From IMG/VR virus record IMGVR_UViG_2541047431_000036: DNA of 4,036 nt. One strand, given 5' to 3'. The notes beneath the pieces are model-generated. The model ran no database searches. It was not told where the DNA came from and saw only the letters and a program-made list of their open reading frames with translations. Position 1 is the stretch's first letter. Each line of letters starts with the position of its first letter. The translations under genes and the position numbers were made by a program. Of this stretch, positions 85-4,036 are shown piece after piece. This DNA comes from a virus (Duplodnaviria > Heunggongvirae > Uroviricota > Caudoviricetes).

Positions 85-111
85 AAAAAACCGGAGCCGG
101 ACTCCGGTTTT
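85..111 (-). terminator. Rho-independent terminator closing the tail fibre transcription unit (hairpin flanked by A and T runs, potentially bidirectional)
   Basis: Plus strand 91-107 is ccggag-ccgga-ctccgg, a 6-bp stem with a 5-nt loop. It is flanked by A6 at 85-90 (a U run 3' of the hairpin on the minus transcript) and TTTT at 108-111 (a U run on the plus transcript). It begins about 20 nt past the stop of the small ORF. Confidence 0.6.
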
Positions 112-125
112 GTGAAGCTGTCGGG

Positions 126-395
126 TTACTTCATCCCGCCAATATTTTCCCACGTCCCGTCAGCACGCAGAATTTGCAGCGGTCTTACCACGCACTGTAT
201 CTGCTTTTTATCCGCATCCAGTATCACCACCTGCGTGATTACCCTGTCCTGCTCCGGAATAATACCATTCTCATCGGACTCCAGGATGTCTGCCGGCCCC
301 AGTCGCAGTTGTGCTGTAAGCGACTGCACGTGTTCACGGCCATCATGCTTTCCGCAACCACACAGACGCTGCATAAGTTTTTTTAGTATATTCAT
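126..395 (-). CDS. Hypothetical small protein (89 aa) immediately downstream of the tail fibre gene; function not recognised
   Basis: ATG at 395-393 is preceded by a good Shine-Dalgarno (GGAGA, plus 401-405) at 5-nt spacing, and lies 2 nt after the tail fibre stop. It reads MNILKKLMQRLCGCGKHDGREH...LRADGTWENIGGMK, with stop at 126-128 followed by a terminator. The ORF tool's 102-aa version starts at ATG 434 inside the fibre gene without an obvious RBS; I prefer the 395 start. I do not recognise the family, and it does not resemble lambda Tfa. Confidence 0.5.
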   Translation of the reverse strand: MNILKKLMQRLCGCGKHDGREHVQSLTAQLRLGPADILESDENGIIPEQDRVITQVVILDADKKQIQCVVRPLQILRADGTWENIGGMK

Positions 396-396
396 G

Positions 397-1589
397 TCAT
401 TCTCCTGTTCTGCCTGTATCACTGCCCACTTCATTCAGCCCCTTAACATCCTGCCACGGCCCGTCACCAAACCTGACCTGCAAATGCCGAAACAGCCCCT
501 GAACCTGTGTGGCATCTTTGGGGTCAAGAAAGGTCAGTCCGGTGATGAGCGCACCATCTGTATCCGGGAACCAGCCATTGCTGTTTGTCTCAATAATGTT
601 TCCCGGCCCCAGACGGAACCGTATTTGCGTCTCCCCCGGGTCGCCCTTCGGCCCCTGAGGTCCGGTTGCCCCCACCGGGCCAGCCGCACCTGTTTCTCCT
701 TTCGGTCCCTGTGGGCCTGCCGGGCCTGCCGCACCGGTATCTCCCTTTGGACCCTGTGGACCTGCATTTCCCGTCAGACCGGTCTCTCCCCGCCCTCCCC
801 TGTCACCTTTCGGCCCCTGCGGGCCTGCCGGACCAGCATCACCTGCCGGTCCCCGTTCGCCGGTTGCCCCTGCCGGGCCGGTGTCTCCACGCTCTCCTTT
901 ATCTCCCTTCGGCCCCTGAGGACCCGCGGGCCCCGGTTCCCCCTTTGGCCCGGGAGGCCCCACCACGGTGGGGATTCGGTTTACGGCTTCTTCCGCCGCT
1001 ATCCTGCTTTGTTCCGCTGACTGTGCGCTTTCTGCTGACTCCCGGGCTTTTTCTGCTGCGGTCGTTGCATCCCTGACTGCTTTGCAGCGGCTGCACTTTC
1101 TGCCGCCTGCCGGGCTGACTCCGATGCATCCCCTGCTGAAGTGTCAGCATTTGCCGCGCTCTCTTCTGCCTGACTGGCTGATATGCCGGCATTCCTCGCG
1201 GACGTCTCCGCCTCTCCGGCATTCTTCTTCGCCTCCTCAGCGTGACGCGCCGCTTCTTCCACCATCAGTTCAAGACGGCGCAGTGCCTCCGGCCGGACGT
1301 CATCCTCCGACATGGCACCGAGAAAATCATTCAGCGTCCCCGGTTGAGAATCTTCATACACGGCGATGGTCCCGGCATGTGACGGCGGGAACCCTTCCAC
1401 CAACAGAATAACGCTGTACTGACCGTACTCAACGTCCATGCTGTAACGACCGGCTTCATCCGGATTTTCAGAGGCCACCGTGTTCACCACCACCGTGGCG
1501 CTGTTACGTCTGGCTTTCAGTTGAATGGTGCAGTTCTCTACCGGTTTTCCTGTGCCGTCTTTCAGTACACCTGAAATCTTTACTGCCAT
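397..1589 (-). pseudogene. stf: Side tail fibre protein: lambda Stf-like N-terminal domain, Ala/Ser/Glu-rich segment, collagen-like Gly-X-Y repeat (37 triplets) and short C-terminal domain; frame broken once as sequenced
   Basis: From the ATG at 1589-1587 the ORF reads MAVKISGVLKDGTGKPVENCTIQLKARRNSATVVVNTV...DEAGRYSMDVEYGQYSVIL...PPSHAGTI.VYEDSQPGTLNDF..., nearly identical to the lambda Stf N-terminus as I recall it. The ORF tool's start at GTG 1595 adds two codons (VN) that I judge not to be part of the protein. This frame stops at 999 after an implausible Q/K/P-rich tail, while the frame opening at 1144 reads ...[36 protein letters not shown] then [19 protein letters not shown]... to the stop at 397-399. 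The frames join at the C3 run 1071-1073 (GGG on the coding strand): adding one G gives ...[16 protein letters not shown]... as a continuous read. Confidence 0.82.
628..960 (-). repeat. Collagen-like Gly-X-Y coding repeat (37 consecutive triplets) within the tail fibre gene
   Basis: The translation is strictly periodic: [27 protein letters not shown] ... [12 protein letters not shown]. The nucleotides show matching degenerate 9-nt periodicity with recurring ggcccctg(a/c)gg and cgggcctgccgg motifs. This is the source of the proline-rich spurious plus-strand ORFs. Confidence 0.9.
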
Positions 1590-1599
1590 ATTCACCCCA

Positions 1600-1627
1600 C
1601 AAAAAAGCCCGCCTGAACCGGCGGGCT
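1600..1627 (-). terminator. Rho-independent terminator after lom
   Basis: Plus strand 1606-1627 is agcccgcc-tgaacc-ggcgggct, an 8-bp GC-rich stem with a 6-nt loop; the plus-strand A6 run 1601-1606 becomes a U run 3' of the hairpin on the minus-strand transcript. It lies between the lom stop (1654) and the stf start (1589). Confidence 0.65.
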
Positions 1628-1653
1628 GTCATAACACTGTGTTACCTGGCTAA

Positions 1654-2254
1654 TCAGAACTTATAACCGACACCCACGATGAAACCGTCAGTGCGCCAGT
1701 CGCCACTGCCGGAGCCTTCATAAGCAATATCAATGGCCACGGATTCGGTCGGGTTAAACTGCACGCCAGCCCCCCACGCCAGAGACGTGTTGCTGTGGCG
1801 ACCGTCATCACTTCCGGTCAGCACATCGTGCGTTTTCCCCTTGTTGTCAGTTACGCGAAGATAATCCCCCGGAGAAAGTCGACACACGGCTGTAAGCCAC
1901 ACCCGCCATCGCATACGCGCTGAACCATTCATTCACGCGCACAGACGGCCCCGCCATTACGCTGAACCAGCGGTTACGAACGGAATCTTCATGCCAGCGG
2001 GTATCGCTGTAACGGGTCAGCTGGCGATTCCTGTCTCCTGCATAGCTGAATGACGTCACCATCCCCAGTGTGTCCGTAAATTCATAACGGTATTTCACGT
2101 TAATCCCGTTAAGATTATCGCTACCGGGAGCGCTCGTCCGGGCATGAAGATACCCCGCGCTCAGCGTGGCCTGCTGCTCAGACGCCCATGCAGGCGCGCC
2201 GGATACGGCCAGACAGATGGCTGCGGACAAAATGGCGGCATAAAGTTTACGCAT
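1654..2254 (-). pseudogene. lom: Lom / Ail-PagC-OmpX family outer-membrane beta-barrel protein (lambda Lom homologue); frame broken once as sequenced
   Basis: ATG at 2254-2252 is preceded by GAGAGG. The N-terminal ORF (MRKLYAAILSAAICLAVSGAPAWA...) has a signal peptide and the Lom-like motifs INVKYRYE and SAYAMAGVA. The C-terminal ORF in another frame ends ...IAYEGSGSGDWRTDGFIVGVGYKF, identical to the lambda Lom C-terminus as I recall it. The frames join at the C5 run 1866-1870 (G5 on the coding strand): removing one G gives VSTFSG-DYLRVTDNK as a continuous read. Stop TGA at 1654-1656. Confidence 0.88.
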
Positions 2255-2278
2255 AATTACCTCTCGCTTTTCTGCAAT

Positions 2279-2302
2279 AAAAAAGGCGCCATTTCTGGCG
2301 CC
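2279..2302 (-). terminator. Rho-independent terminator after J (hairpin GGCGCCA/TGGCGCC followed by a T6 run on the minus strand)
   Basis: Plus strand 2285-2302 is ggcgccatttctggcgcc, a 7-bp stem with a 4-nt loop; the plus-strand A run 2279-2284 becomes a U run immediately 3' of the hairpin on the minus-strand transcript. It sits between the corrected J stop (2322) and the lom start (2254). Confidence 0.6.
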
Positions 2303-2321
2303 CGTATATGGGTTATAAAAT

Positions 2322-4036
2322 TCAGCTGATACTGATGCCTGCGGTGGCTTTCTTCATCACCACAACCAAGCAGATCGCTGATACTGGTTGTTGGTGTCCA
2401 GTTATTCGCTCCTGATGAAGATACGGTGAATGTCAGTGTCAGCGTCCCCTGTCCGGCAGGCATATCTATAACTGAGGAAAATACGCCCTGAGCATCCGTC
2501 GTGGACTGATTAAAAATCTCCTGACCATTGCGGGTCACTCTTAACCGGCAGGTTGAATACCAGTATGACTGTTGGTTATTACTGTTGAAATTCTCATGCT
2601 TACCACCGCGGAATAACACTGGCGGTATCATGACCTGCCGGTCAAACTTCTGATCATCACTGATTCTTACCGTGATGGTGCCACTGGCATAAGTGCTCGT
2701 GCGGGGGAAAGACTTGCTGACCGTTTTGACAATATCGCCTTCAATCTGGTTGGCTGACAGTTTCCCCTTAATCTGACAGTTCTCATTAATCGTGACGTTG
2801 TTGAGCGTCCCTGAGTTCGCATTCACACTGCCACTGATATCCGCATTTTTCGCCGTCAGTCGCCCGTCCGGCGTCAGGGAAAACGTCGGGGGATTGCCGG
2901 ACGAGGTGATACTCACCGCAAACAGTCGCTTCAGGAACACGTCGTTCATGAACAGCTGATTCCCCTGCGCCACAAATAACGGCGTGCTGTTGCCGCTCTC
3001 CGGATTTATCATCGCGATACGGTCAGCCAGCAGCAGTATGTTGCTCAGTGGCTGGCCATCAGTATCCTCAATCCCTGCACCAATCCCGGCCACATAGGGA
3101 ATGCCGTCTTTCGTTTTTTGAACCTTCAGCATGTACAGCGCAGCCAGGTCATCATTTGTGTCCTTCTGCACGCGCTGTATCTGCTGTATAGTGGCGCTCT
3201 GGTTCTCCAGCGTTTTACTGACCGTCTGTGTGATTTCATTGCGGGTTTCCGTGATGGTGGTCTTCATCTCCGCCATCTCATCCGCAAGCTGGCTGTTGTC
3301 TATCAGCTCCCATAGCCCCTGAGCCAGATGCAGTTTTCCTATTTTTTCCCGGAAAAATTCCAGATACCCTTCACCATCATTGCTGGGCTGCCCGCTGACT
3401 TCCACAAACGCAGATTTCCCCACCAGGTTGACGCTGCGCACGTAAAACCAGAAATCCGTCCCCGGCTTAATCCGGCTTCCCTGGACAGTCCACTGACTGC
3501 CGCTCCCCAGATAACGGGCAGATTTTTCCACCTGTGCCGTGTTCGTGATGCGTTTTTTCCGAAAACCAGAACTCAAACTGCACCGTCGGGTCATACACCG
3601 CCAGCACCGGTACCGCCGTTATCTGAAAATACCCCGGCGTCAGTTCAATGGTGGCGGGTTTTGCTGGCGCGTTAATCCGGAAGGTGGTGATGGCCGGTTC
3701 CCCCTGCTGGCCATAACTGTTAATTGCCCTGACTGTCAGGGTGTATTCCCCGAGCGGCAGACCACTGAAACGATGCTCTGTATCCGCAGTGATGGCGGTG
3801 GTCACCAGACGGCTGTCCTGACCGCTTCCACTGGTCAGGCGCAGACTGAAGCGCACGCCCTTCACCACCCGCGGCGTGTCCCATTTCGCCTGCGCCAGAT
3901 ACTGGCTGTCAGCTGCACTCACCTCCACCGTCAGGTGCTGCACTGCCGGAGGGATGACGCTGTTCAGGGTGCCGCTCTGGTCGCCGTCAAAGTGCGCCCC
4001 GTTATCCACGATGGCTTCTTTTTCCGGTACGTGCTG
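2322..4036 (-). pseudogene. J: Tail tip / host-specificity protein J (central tail fibre), C-terminal part; 5' end lies beyond the window; frame broken twice as sequenced
   Basis: Minus-strand translation from the window edge ([30 protein letters not shown]...TPGYFQITA...[14 protein letters not shown]) matches my recollection of the central part of lambda J, and the 445-aa ORF (3594..2257) continues with J-like sequence (YVAGIG...[18 protein letters not shown]...[34 protein letters not shown]...[15 protein letters not shown]). Frame break 1 is at the T6 run 3553-3558 (A6 on the coding strand): removing one A gives [22 protein letters not shown], which is colinear with lambda J. Frame break 2 is near 2366-2367: the next frame reads [19 protein letters not shown] then TGA at 2322-2324, resembling the lambda J C-terminus, whereas the uncorrected frame runs through the downstream terminator to 2257. 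Confidence 0.85.

Follow-up and report, generated by a model that had tools for sequence, protein, structure and literature searches.

The window, the whole stretch of 4,036 nucleotides that was analysed, is the last 4 kb of the 61.7-kb contig AVRE01000025.1 in the draft genome of Escherichia coli O157:H7 strain B93. The contig passes from unique chromosome (hprS to yodB, espJ, tccP) into a tfa-stf-lom-J module and stops inside J. Exact product look-ups indicated that the window stops 2 nt short of this terminus. The module in the window, composed of the C-terminal part of J, lom, stf and tfa, belongs to a prophage of the Sp14/CP-933U type and adjoins tccP and espJ. Gene order and full-length homology of the four genes (tblastn, Pfam, RefSeq names) confirmed a lambda-type tail tip/side fibre module, and an earlier note on this DNA had named J, lom and stf correctly. 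Searches by tblastn with intact reference proteins covered residues 590-1159 of J, 1-199 of Lom, 1-171 and 211-437 of Stf, and 1-89 of Tfa. O157 genomes each contain about 10 near-identical copies of the module. No tRNA was found at the prophage border in an ARAGORN scan of locus L004. The features of the window are as follows.

87-111, minus strand: terminator-like hairpin, 3' of tfa
126-395, minus strand: tfa, tail fibre assembly / fibre C-terminal domain protein, intact, 89 aa (tblastn)
397-1589, minus strand: stf, side tail fibre, 1193 nt versus 1314 (tblastn)
794, minus strand: substitution E306G in the collagen-like region of stf; 29 complete genomes have this allele, in different stf contexts
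1073-1076, minus strand: junction of a 121-nt deletion (123 minus 2) in stf, ambiguous through CAG microhomology (base-by-base alignment)
1274-1364, minus strand: private non-synonymous substitutions in stf, at 1364 (T76A) and 1274 (F106L) (alignment)
1606-1627, minus strand: terminator-like hairpin, 3' of lom
1654-2254, minus strand: lom, Ail/Lom outer-membrane beta-barrel, 601 nt versus 600, split into called products of 135 aa and 77 aa (tblastn)
1866-1870, minus strand: C5 (G5 on the coding strand; four in the intact allele), +1 after Lom residue 129 (base-by-base alignment)
2284-2303, minus strand: terminator-like hairpin, 3' of J
2325-4036, minus strand: 3' part of J, tail tip / host specificity, residues 590-1159 of 1159 aa in three frames (tblastn with WP_072643111.1)
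2368-2369, minus strand: AA (TT on the coding strand; one base in the intact allele), +1, 15 codons before the end of J (base-by-base alignment)
3553-3558, minus strand: T6 (A6 on the coding strand; five in the intact allele), +1, J stops after about residue 750 (base-by-base alignment, closest complete genome)

The orthologous locus of J is gpJ in RefSeq, and the called J fragments match Pfam Ig_J, Phage_Tail_Tip and Ig_GpJ_C. In the tblastn alignment J occupies three frames: residues 590-750 in frame -1 (4036 to 3554), 747-1145 in frame -2 (3564 to 2368) and 1145-1159 in frame -3 (2369 to 2325). The sequence at the first site is TGTTCGTGATGCGTTTTTTCCGAAAACCAGAA, compared to a T5 form in the reference, so that one base too many is indeed present at 3553-3558 as the earlier note had it. 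At the second site the sequence is CATCACCACAACCAAGCAGATCGCTGAT, compared to ...CCAGCAG.... The earlier note had also read an extra base near the 3' end of J and assigned it to the C of CC at 2366-2367; the extra base is there, but it is one of the two A at 2368-2369. The window has CCAAG where the reference has CCAG. One base is doubled in an intact single-base context, hence there is no run. The open reading frame at 2257-3594 gave an exact record as the depositors' 339-aa product. No exact record was found for its 445-aa version, because the depositors called a shorter start.

In lom, the frame changes from -1 (residues 1-129) to -2 (residues 129-199) at 1868/1869 (tblastn). The site reads ACGCGAAGATAATCCCCCGGAGAAAGTCGAC, against a C4 form, and the single extra C proposed for 1866-1870 was borne out.

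The stf product is laid out as an N-terminal domain, Ala/Ser/Glu-rich repeats, a collagen-like Gly-X-Y region and a C-terminal domain. Frame -3 encodes residues 1 to about 171, and frame -2 encodes residues 211-437 (tblastn). The start frame runs for 196 aa before a stop, compared to 437 aa in the reference. The earlier note had proposed one missing base at 1071-1073. What is missing is 121 nt, with the junction at 1073-1076. The deletion removes about 40 codons, shifts the frame by -1 and falls between two imperfect direct repeats, both starting GGCAGAAAGTGCAGCCG, with the crossover in the CAG microhomology. The junction sequence is GGTCGTTGCATCCCTGACTGCTTTGCAGCG, and it is exactly the sequence that results from piling both repeat copies and switching the consensus from one copy to the other at CAG. 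A clean in-frame form, 123 nt shorter, exists among natural stf paralogues and uses an 18-nt perfect repeat.

All four frame breaks that the earlier note described are therefore present in the deposited sequence, each placed by it within a few bases (tblastn with the intact reference proteins). Its description of all four as single-base indels at runs holds for two of them (T6 and C5); the others are a single-base duplication and a 121-nt repeat-mediated deletion. It had also suggested a frameshift-tolerant comparison with related genomes, and tblastn recovered each protein across the frames. The protein 3' of each break is 99-100% identical to the intact proteins in the shifted frames, indicating no further decay downstream of the breaks.

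The order J-lom-stf-tfa-tccP-espJ beside yodB/zinT is shared with Sp14 of Sakai and CP-933U of EDL933, and identity to complete O157:H7 genomes is 99.7%. In the B93 deposit three of these genes (J, lom and stf) are disrupted, whereas one identical allele with J, lom, stf and tfa all intact is common to at least 16 complete genomes. The identical Tfa protein is recorded in 8,832 blocks of the collection. Comparison of the window to the intact allele revealed seven differences. Six of the seven were not found in any of 5,426 complete E. coli genomes, save for A6 in one PacBio-only assembly. For the second J site (TT) and the stf junction, exact 81-mers were found in none of these genomes, and the lom G5 81-mer had no full-length exact match among them. 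Among genomes covering most of each 81-mer, the variant was present in 1/847 for A6, 0/2,204 for TT and 0/4,314 for G5. Over the 171-nt stretch of stf carrying T76A and F106L, every complete genome stays below 99% identity, so that neither substitution is observed by itself on an otherwise matching background. 'Repaired' Stf proteins with the B93 substitutions, including E306G, gave no exact record. The broken products (196, 135, 77 and 339 aa, and an antisense product of 208 aa) are recorded in contig AVRE01000025.1 only, the 135-aa and 77-aa lom products thus for strain B93 only; for Logan and ENA this absence has limited power, as short-read assemblies break in this repeat.

The single genome with the exact A6 81-mer is strain 155 (CP018237), a PacBio-only assembly in which gpJ is annotated as frameshifted. 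The assembly carries a further +1 frameshift 5 kb from the A6 site, and its sequence background is unrelated. Recurrence there speaks against an artefact in B93 and could mark a real slippage hot spot. The earlier note took the same indels in independent isolates, together with reads confirming the run lengths, as the sign of genuine pseudogenes; in the 81-mer search of the 5,426 complete genomes, only A6 recurred, in this one unrelated assembly.

The positions of the changes were compared with the rest of the contig. None of the seven is more than 3,245 nt from the contig end. The probability that six private changes all fall in the terminal 2,964 of 13,040 nt is 1.4e-4. The 7.3 kb chromosomal backbone contains no indels and no private changes, in contrast to six private changes in less than 3 kb of the window. 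Because this flanking backbone is clean, ordinary divergence is ruled out for the density of private changes. In the next ~10 kb, every locally checked difference is also found in other genomes: a tccP stretch with five substitutions in about 290 genomes, a zinT SNP in 306 and the espJ T8 allele in 13. A possible exception is the 141-nt repeat missing from tccP. The three single-base events are all insertions, and there are at least as many indels as substitutions. In spontaneous mutation of E. coli, by contrast, substitutions are far more numerous than indels. The probability that at least two of three random insertions lengthen a run of four or more is 1.8e-3, which puts the association of the T6 and C5 sites with runs above chance.

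The espJ allele provides a positive control within the same contig. A T7 to T8 change (position 5711 of locus L004) lies only 1.7 kb outside the window and, like two of the window lesions, adds one base to a mononucleotide run and breaks a prophage-borne gene. Unlike them, it is reproduced by independent sources. The T8 product is found in 100 contigs (NCBI, Logan, ENA), including other source-named strains, and T8 itself in 13 complete genomes. Given this recurrence, it behaves as a real inherited pseudogene, and the window lesions fail the same control. That a genuine frameshift lies so close to the window is itself an observation against the artefact reading.

The B93 deposit (GCA_000462425.2) has 50 contigs and 5.52 Mb, compared to 236 contigs and 5.32 Mb in an Illumina-only reassembly. 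The difference suggests that the extra repeat sequence rests on error-prone longer reads. Low-contig deposits are Celera hybrids of 454 and Illumina reads (Rusconi et al. 2016), and from the contig counts we infer that the B93 deposit is of this class. The affected sites lie in sequence that O157 genomes carry more than once. The first J site is found in up to five places per genome and the stf site in a median of nine; among the records listed, the second J site is found in 4-10 places and the lom site in 2-12.

Taken together, the four frame breaks are probably consensus or assembly artefacts in a multi-copy repeat, on a circumstantial case built from sequence comparison. Error is favoured because the changes are confined to a single draft assembly and concentrated in the terminal 3.25 kb of a contig that stops inside a multi-copy gene, and because private substitutions accompany them. 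If so, J, lom and stf are most likely intact in the actual B93 genome, as they are in the at least 16 complete genomes. In the mechanism that we propose, few reads would be placed uniquely in the multi-copy module and reads from paralogues would contaminate the pile-up. The consensus may then have gained three single-base over-calls and two substitutions, and an internal 123-nt repeat would have collapsed to give the 121-nt deletion. The window shares several properties with homopolymer and repeat-collapse consensus errors in draft or long-read assemblies: single-base length changes, a collapsed internal repeat, restriction to one assembly, a contig end in a multi-copy prophage, and shifted frames that otherwise encode a perfect protein. 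It differs from that class in that one insertion doubles a single base and not a run.

Other routes to an erroneous consensus were considered. Mixing of paralogues is plausible for E306G and the 121-nt deletion. It was rejected for the single-base insertions, as none of the paralogues in the complete genomes contains the variant 81-mers. A chimeric misjoin of the tail module of another prophage onto the tccP flank need not be invoked. The same join is found in at least 16 complete genomes, and in EC4115 the orthologue is a closer match than even the most similar paralogue. Uniform platform error along the contig is not compatible with 7.3 kb of backbone lacking an indel.

Sequencing error and slipped-strand decay were the two alternatives named in the earlier note. 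They are the right pair, and the evidence favours error. In the second, all four lesions would be genuine and reflect recent inactivation by strand slippage (three +1 events) and direct-repeat deletion, leaving a dead remnant; this is decidedly unlikely. Sp14 is defective and is not packaged in Sakai (PMC2669165), and selection on the tail genes may be relaxed, but weaker selection leaves the mutation rate as it is, and six private mutations would be needed in less than 3 kb, against none in the 7.3 kb backbone. The microhomology at the deletion junction is as in real slippage deletions. Frameshifts or internal stops are annotated at other sites in gpJ or stf of the same prophage in PV15-279, 611 and TW14359, which indicates that real decay of these genes occurs and which also counts against an artefact. 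The neighboring espJ is a genuine, widely shared frameshift pseudogene, and A6 is present in strain 155 too. However, that sole other A6 genome is a PacBio-only assembly, and the broken products of the window are recorded for no other isolate, in contrast to the 100 contigs with espJ T8. The coincidence of the cluster with a contig end in a repeat, the excess or parity of indels over substitutions, the single-base ones all being insertions, and the lack of additional decay downstream all argue against genuine inactivation. A burst of inactivation in B93 limited to J-lom-stf, with the A5 run as a recurrent slippage hot spot that turns the tail tip off, is likewise quite improbable. A mixed origin, in which one or two lesions are real and the rest are consensus errors, is rather unlikely. 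The best candidates would be the 121-nt stf deletion, since repeat-mediated length variation is natural in this part of stf, with paralogues lacking the 123 nt, and a homopolymer miscount is more typical of base-calling error than a deletion of this kind, of read length; or the J A5 to A6 change, since A6 recurs in an unrelated background. Against this, the natural short forms of stf are in frame through their perfect repeat, the 121-nt junction is found nowhere else and equals a pile-up chimera of two copies, and all lesions are in one contig-end cluster.

A functional role of the run sites, as programmed ribosomal frameshifting or as phase-variable contingency switches for tail or Lom expression, is extremely improbable. 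In its favour, two of the sites fall in short mononucleotide runs, and A6 was found a second time. However, of the other two sites one lacks a run and the other is a 121-nt deletion, the homologues are single uninterrupted reading frames in hundreds of complete genomes, and the variant counts given above (1/847, 0/2,204 and 0/4,314) contradict it at the population level. Known contingency tracts are far longer than runs of four or five bases.

Genuine frameshifts in stf do exist and are tolerated. In work by Hendrix and Duda in 1992, laboratory lambda (lambda PaPa), compared with Ur-lambda, is said to carry an stf frameshift that leaves two open reading frames. As in the window, the stf of a lambdoid phage is split. 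The lambda lesion is experimentally verified and lineage-wide, whereas the B93 lesions are singletons in one draft contig.

For users of GCA_000462425.2 the result is a caution: taken at face value, the deposit turns J, lom and stf of the tccP/espJ prophage into pseudogenes and adds a probably spurious antisense 'hypothetical protein'. The earlier note had set a functional tail module against a dead remnant. This contrast is weaker than it was put, as Sp14 is already defective in Sakai (PMC2669165): it is defective in other modules there, with tail and host-specificity functions scored as intact. Real lesions would merely add one more decayed module to a defective prophage. The comparison also offers a cheap, read-free way to sort real from artificial frameshifts, using recurrence elsewhere, clustering at contig ends and recovery of a neighboring genuine frameshift. 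B94, the household-pair isolate of B93, is 0 SNPs apart from it; the Illumina runs of the two are SRR646549 (B93) and SRR646552 (B94).

The genes of the window are all on the minus strand and comprise the 3' 1.7 kb of J (tail tip/host specificity), followed by lom, stf and tfa. Among 5,426 complete E. coli genomes searched by megablast, at least 16 O157:H7-type chromosomes match the window with 100% coverage and 99.7% identity. They annotate intact gpJ, Ail/Lom, a tail fibre N-terminal-domain protein and a tail fibre C-terminal-domain protein. In strain 3-5-1, the orthologous locus is followed by tccP and espJ. The module is the right end of an Sp14 (Sakai)/CP-933U-type lambdoid prophage. The source contig, identified from exact matches to the truncated products, is AVRE01000025.1 (61,694 nt; assembly GCA_000462425.2, Escherichia coli B93). 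It ends 2 nt beyond the window end and breaks off inside J. B93, an O157:H7 isolate of clade 8.32, came from a human in Missouri in 2005 and forms a household pair with B94, 0 SNPs apart (PMC4928038). A misjoin with another prophage's tail module need not be invoked: the same join occurs in at least 16 complete genomes, and in EC4115 even the closest paralogue falls short of the orthologue in similarity.

Tfa is intact in the window. Stf contains a long collagen-like Gly-X-Y region (window 640-960, minus strand). Its C-terminal domain is ~39% identical to Tfa in tblastn cross-hits (126-620, minus strand, for the two together), which makes the downstream tfa gene a paralogue of the fibre C-terminus. 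Terminator-like hairpins come after J, lom and tfa and suggest separate transcription stops around lom.

Terminator-like GC-rich hairpins with a T tail
87-111, minus strand: after tfa
1606-1627, minus strand: after lom
2284-2303, minus strand: after J

Four frame switches were found across the window by tblastn with the intact proteins, and the lesions were resolved by alignment with the closest complete genome. The earlier note had placed four breaks here, all as single-base indels at runs. All four breaks are present. The extra base in T6 and that in C5 are borne out. The extra base assigned to CC at 2366-2367 is instead an A at 2368-2369, and the supposed one-base loss from C3 at 1071-1073 is a 121-nt deletion, which takes out ~40 codons and causes a -1 frameshift. 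Two of the three insertions lengthen runs of at least four bases (chance P = 1.8e-3), so with the breaks present the observation is confirmed in part. Three further differences from the intact allele are substitutions.

Differences from the intact allele (private: absent from the 5,426 complete genomes, save that T6 occurs in one)
3553-3558, J: T6 in the window, T5 in the intact allele
2368-2369, J: CCAAG (AA) in the window, CCAG (single A) in the intact allele, which has no run here
1866-1870, lom: C5 in the window, C4 in the intact allele
junction 1073-1076, stf: 121-nt deletion, undeleted in the intact allele
1364: private substitution, T76A
1274: private substitution, F106L
794: non-private substitution, E306G

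The start-frame products end near residue 750 of 1159 in J, and comprise 135 of 199 aa in Lom and 196 of 437 aa in Stf.

The differences cluster at the contig end. When 13 kb of the B93 contig was aligned with complete genomes, all seven differences from the closest allele fell within 3,245 nt of the end, and all six private ones within 2,964 nt. Were six events scattered at random over 13,040 nt, the probability that every one falls in the last 2,964 nt would be 1.4e-4. Farther inward, every locally checked difference is an allele common to other complete genomes (a tccP stretch with five substitutions, ~290 genomes; a zinT SNP, 306; espJ T8, 13), save a repeat loss in tccP. The chromosomal backbone, 7.3 kb in length, is free of indels. 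B93 tccP (241 aa; 4039-4764 of the B93 contig locus, L004) has one 141-nt proline-rich repeat fewer than the compared complete genomes, and no exact match to its product is on record. The repeat loss is either natural repeat-number variation or a further repeat collapse in assembly.

The deposited B93 assembly has 50 contigs and 5.52 Mb, and a SPAdes reassembly from Illumina reads alone comes to 5.32 Mb in 236 contigs (Rusconi et al., Supplementary Table 1). We infer that the extra 0.2 Mb consists of resolved repeats, including this contig end, from longer, more indel-prone reads, and that Illumina reads could not be uniquely placed in it.

All four lesions are probably artefacts of consensus calling or assembly, at a contig end of low quality in a multi-copy prophage module. 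Real, recent pseudogenisation by all four is improbable. Two points speak against the artefact reading. Sp14 is already defective in Sakai, although tail and host-specificity functions are scored intact there (PMC2669165). In the complete O157:H7 genomes PV15-279 (L009), 611 (L010) and TW14359 (L022), annotation gives gpJ or stf of this prophage a frameshift or an internal stop at positions other than those in the window; these genes do undergo genuine decay. However, there are ~2 private changes per kb here and none in the adjacent backbone. Relaxed selection on a defective prophage does not raise the local mutation rate, and real divergence therefore fails to explain this density. Past each break, the shifted frames still specify 99-100% of the intact proteins (tblastn), so the lesions, if real, must all have arisen very recently. 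Every one of the three single-base events is an insertion, and indels are at least as numerous as substitutions; spontaneous mutation spectra are unlike this all-insertion, indel-rich pattern. A mixed case, with one or two real lesions, most plausibly the stf deletion or A6 (the J run on the coding strand), is unlikely but somewhat easier to accept. Programmed frameshifting or phase variation as the source of the breaks is highly implausible.

Recurrence was examined with 81-nt queries, one centred on each site, against the 5,426 complete genomes. A6 has a single exact match, strain 155 (NZ_CP018237.1, L003), whose orthologous gpJ (locus 3794-7274) is annotated as frameshifted. Its assembly is PacBio RS II only (PMC5359411), and its lom-stf allele differs from that of B93. 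The A5 to A6 change, common to both strains at the orthologous J position, marks a site of repeated error or else a genuine slippage hot spot; a near-palindrome, GTTTTCGGAAAAAC, surrounds the run. In the same genomes, the TT site (2368-2369) and the deletion junction gave no matches, and the G5 site (1866-1870) no full-length match. No complete genome reaches 99% over the 171-nt stretch with the stf substitutions 1364 and 1274, so neither allele is seen alone in otherwise matching context. The E306G allele is carried by 29 genomes, where the stf context differs; an Stf protein combining it with the window stf allele is not on record.

Intact stf contains GGCAGAAAGTGCAGCCG twice, 123 nt apart. 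Copy 1 is followed by CTGCAAAGCAGT-CAG and copy 2 by GTAATGCAGC-CAG. Natural paralogues, such as that of PA8, show a clean in-frame version that lacks 123 nt, with the join inside the 18-nt identity. The window stf keeps a 12-nt copy-1 tail and resumes after the copy-2 CAG (123 - 2 = 121 nt). If the two copies, or long- and short-form paralogues, were piled up and the consensus switched source at CAG, this junction would result. Real slippage at 3-4-nt microhomology would produce an identical-looking one.

A T-run in espJ (5681-5890 of the B93 locus) served as a positive control. T7 to T8 at 5711 lies ~1.7 kb outside the window on the same contig. The 69-aa T8 product is found in 100 contigs (NCBI, Logan, ENA), including other source-named strains, and PGAP flags the frameshift in both T8 genomes opened, 611 and F3113. 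TW14359 and strain 155 carry other espJ frameshifts, that of strain 155 being a +1 elsewhere in the gene. Given the wide recurrence of T8 and these different frameshifts, this effector gene appears to be undergoing real, repeated decay in O157:H7. By exact look-up, each product of the window lesions is found in one contig, always that of B93, although espJ is single-copy and assembles from short reads, whereas assemblies usually break within the multi-copy J, lom and stf.

Products found in the B93 contig only
Stf-N, 196 aa
Lom-N, 135 aa
Lom-C, 77 aa
J piece, 339 aa
394-1020, plus strand: antisense ORF called in place of stf, 208 aa

The antisense ORF crosses the GC-rich collagen-like portion of stf; the deposit names it hypothetical protein S1C_2489 (ERC40996.1, 208 aa). 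This call is spurious and occupies the space that the broken stf leaves.

Compared with its flanks, the J-lom-stf-tfa module shows mosaicism (L004 compared with L005, L010, L011 and L022), which suggests that prophage tail modules have recombined with one another. The tail-module allele of B93 is found again in 3-5-1, its espJ T8 in 611 and F3113, and its zinT allele in 611, F3113 and TW14359. Its tccP differs from those of 3-5-1, 611, F3113 and TW14359 at five identical positions, although locally the tccP sequence of B93 is identical to that of many other complete genomes.
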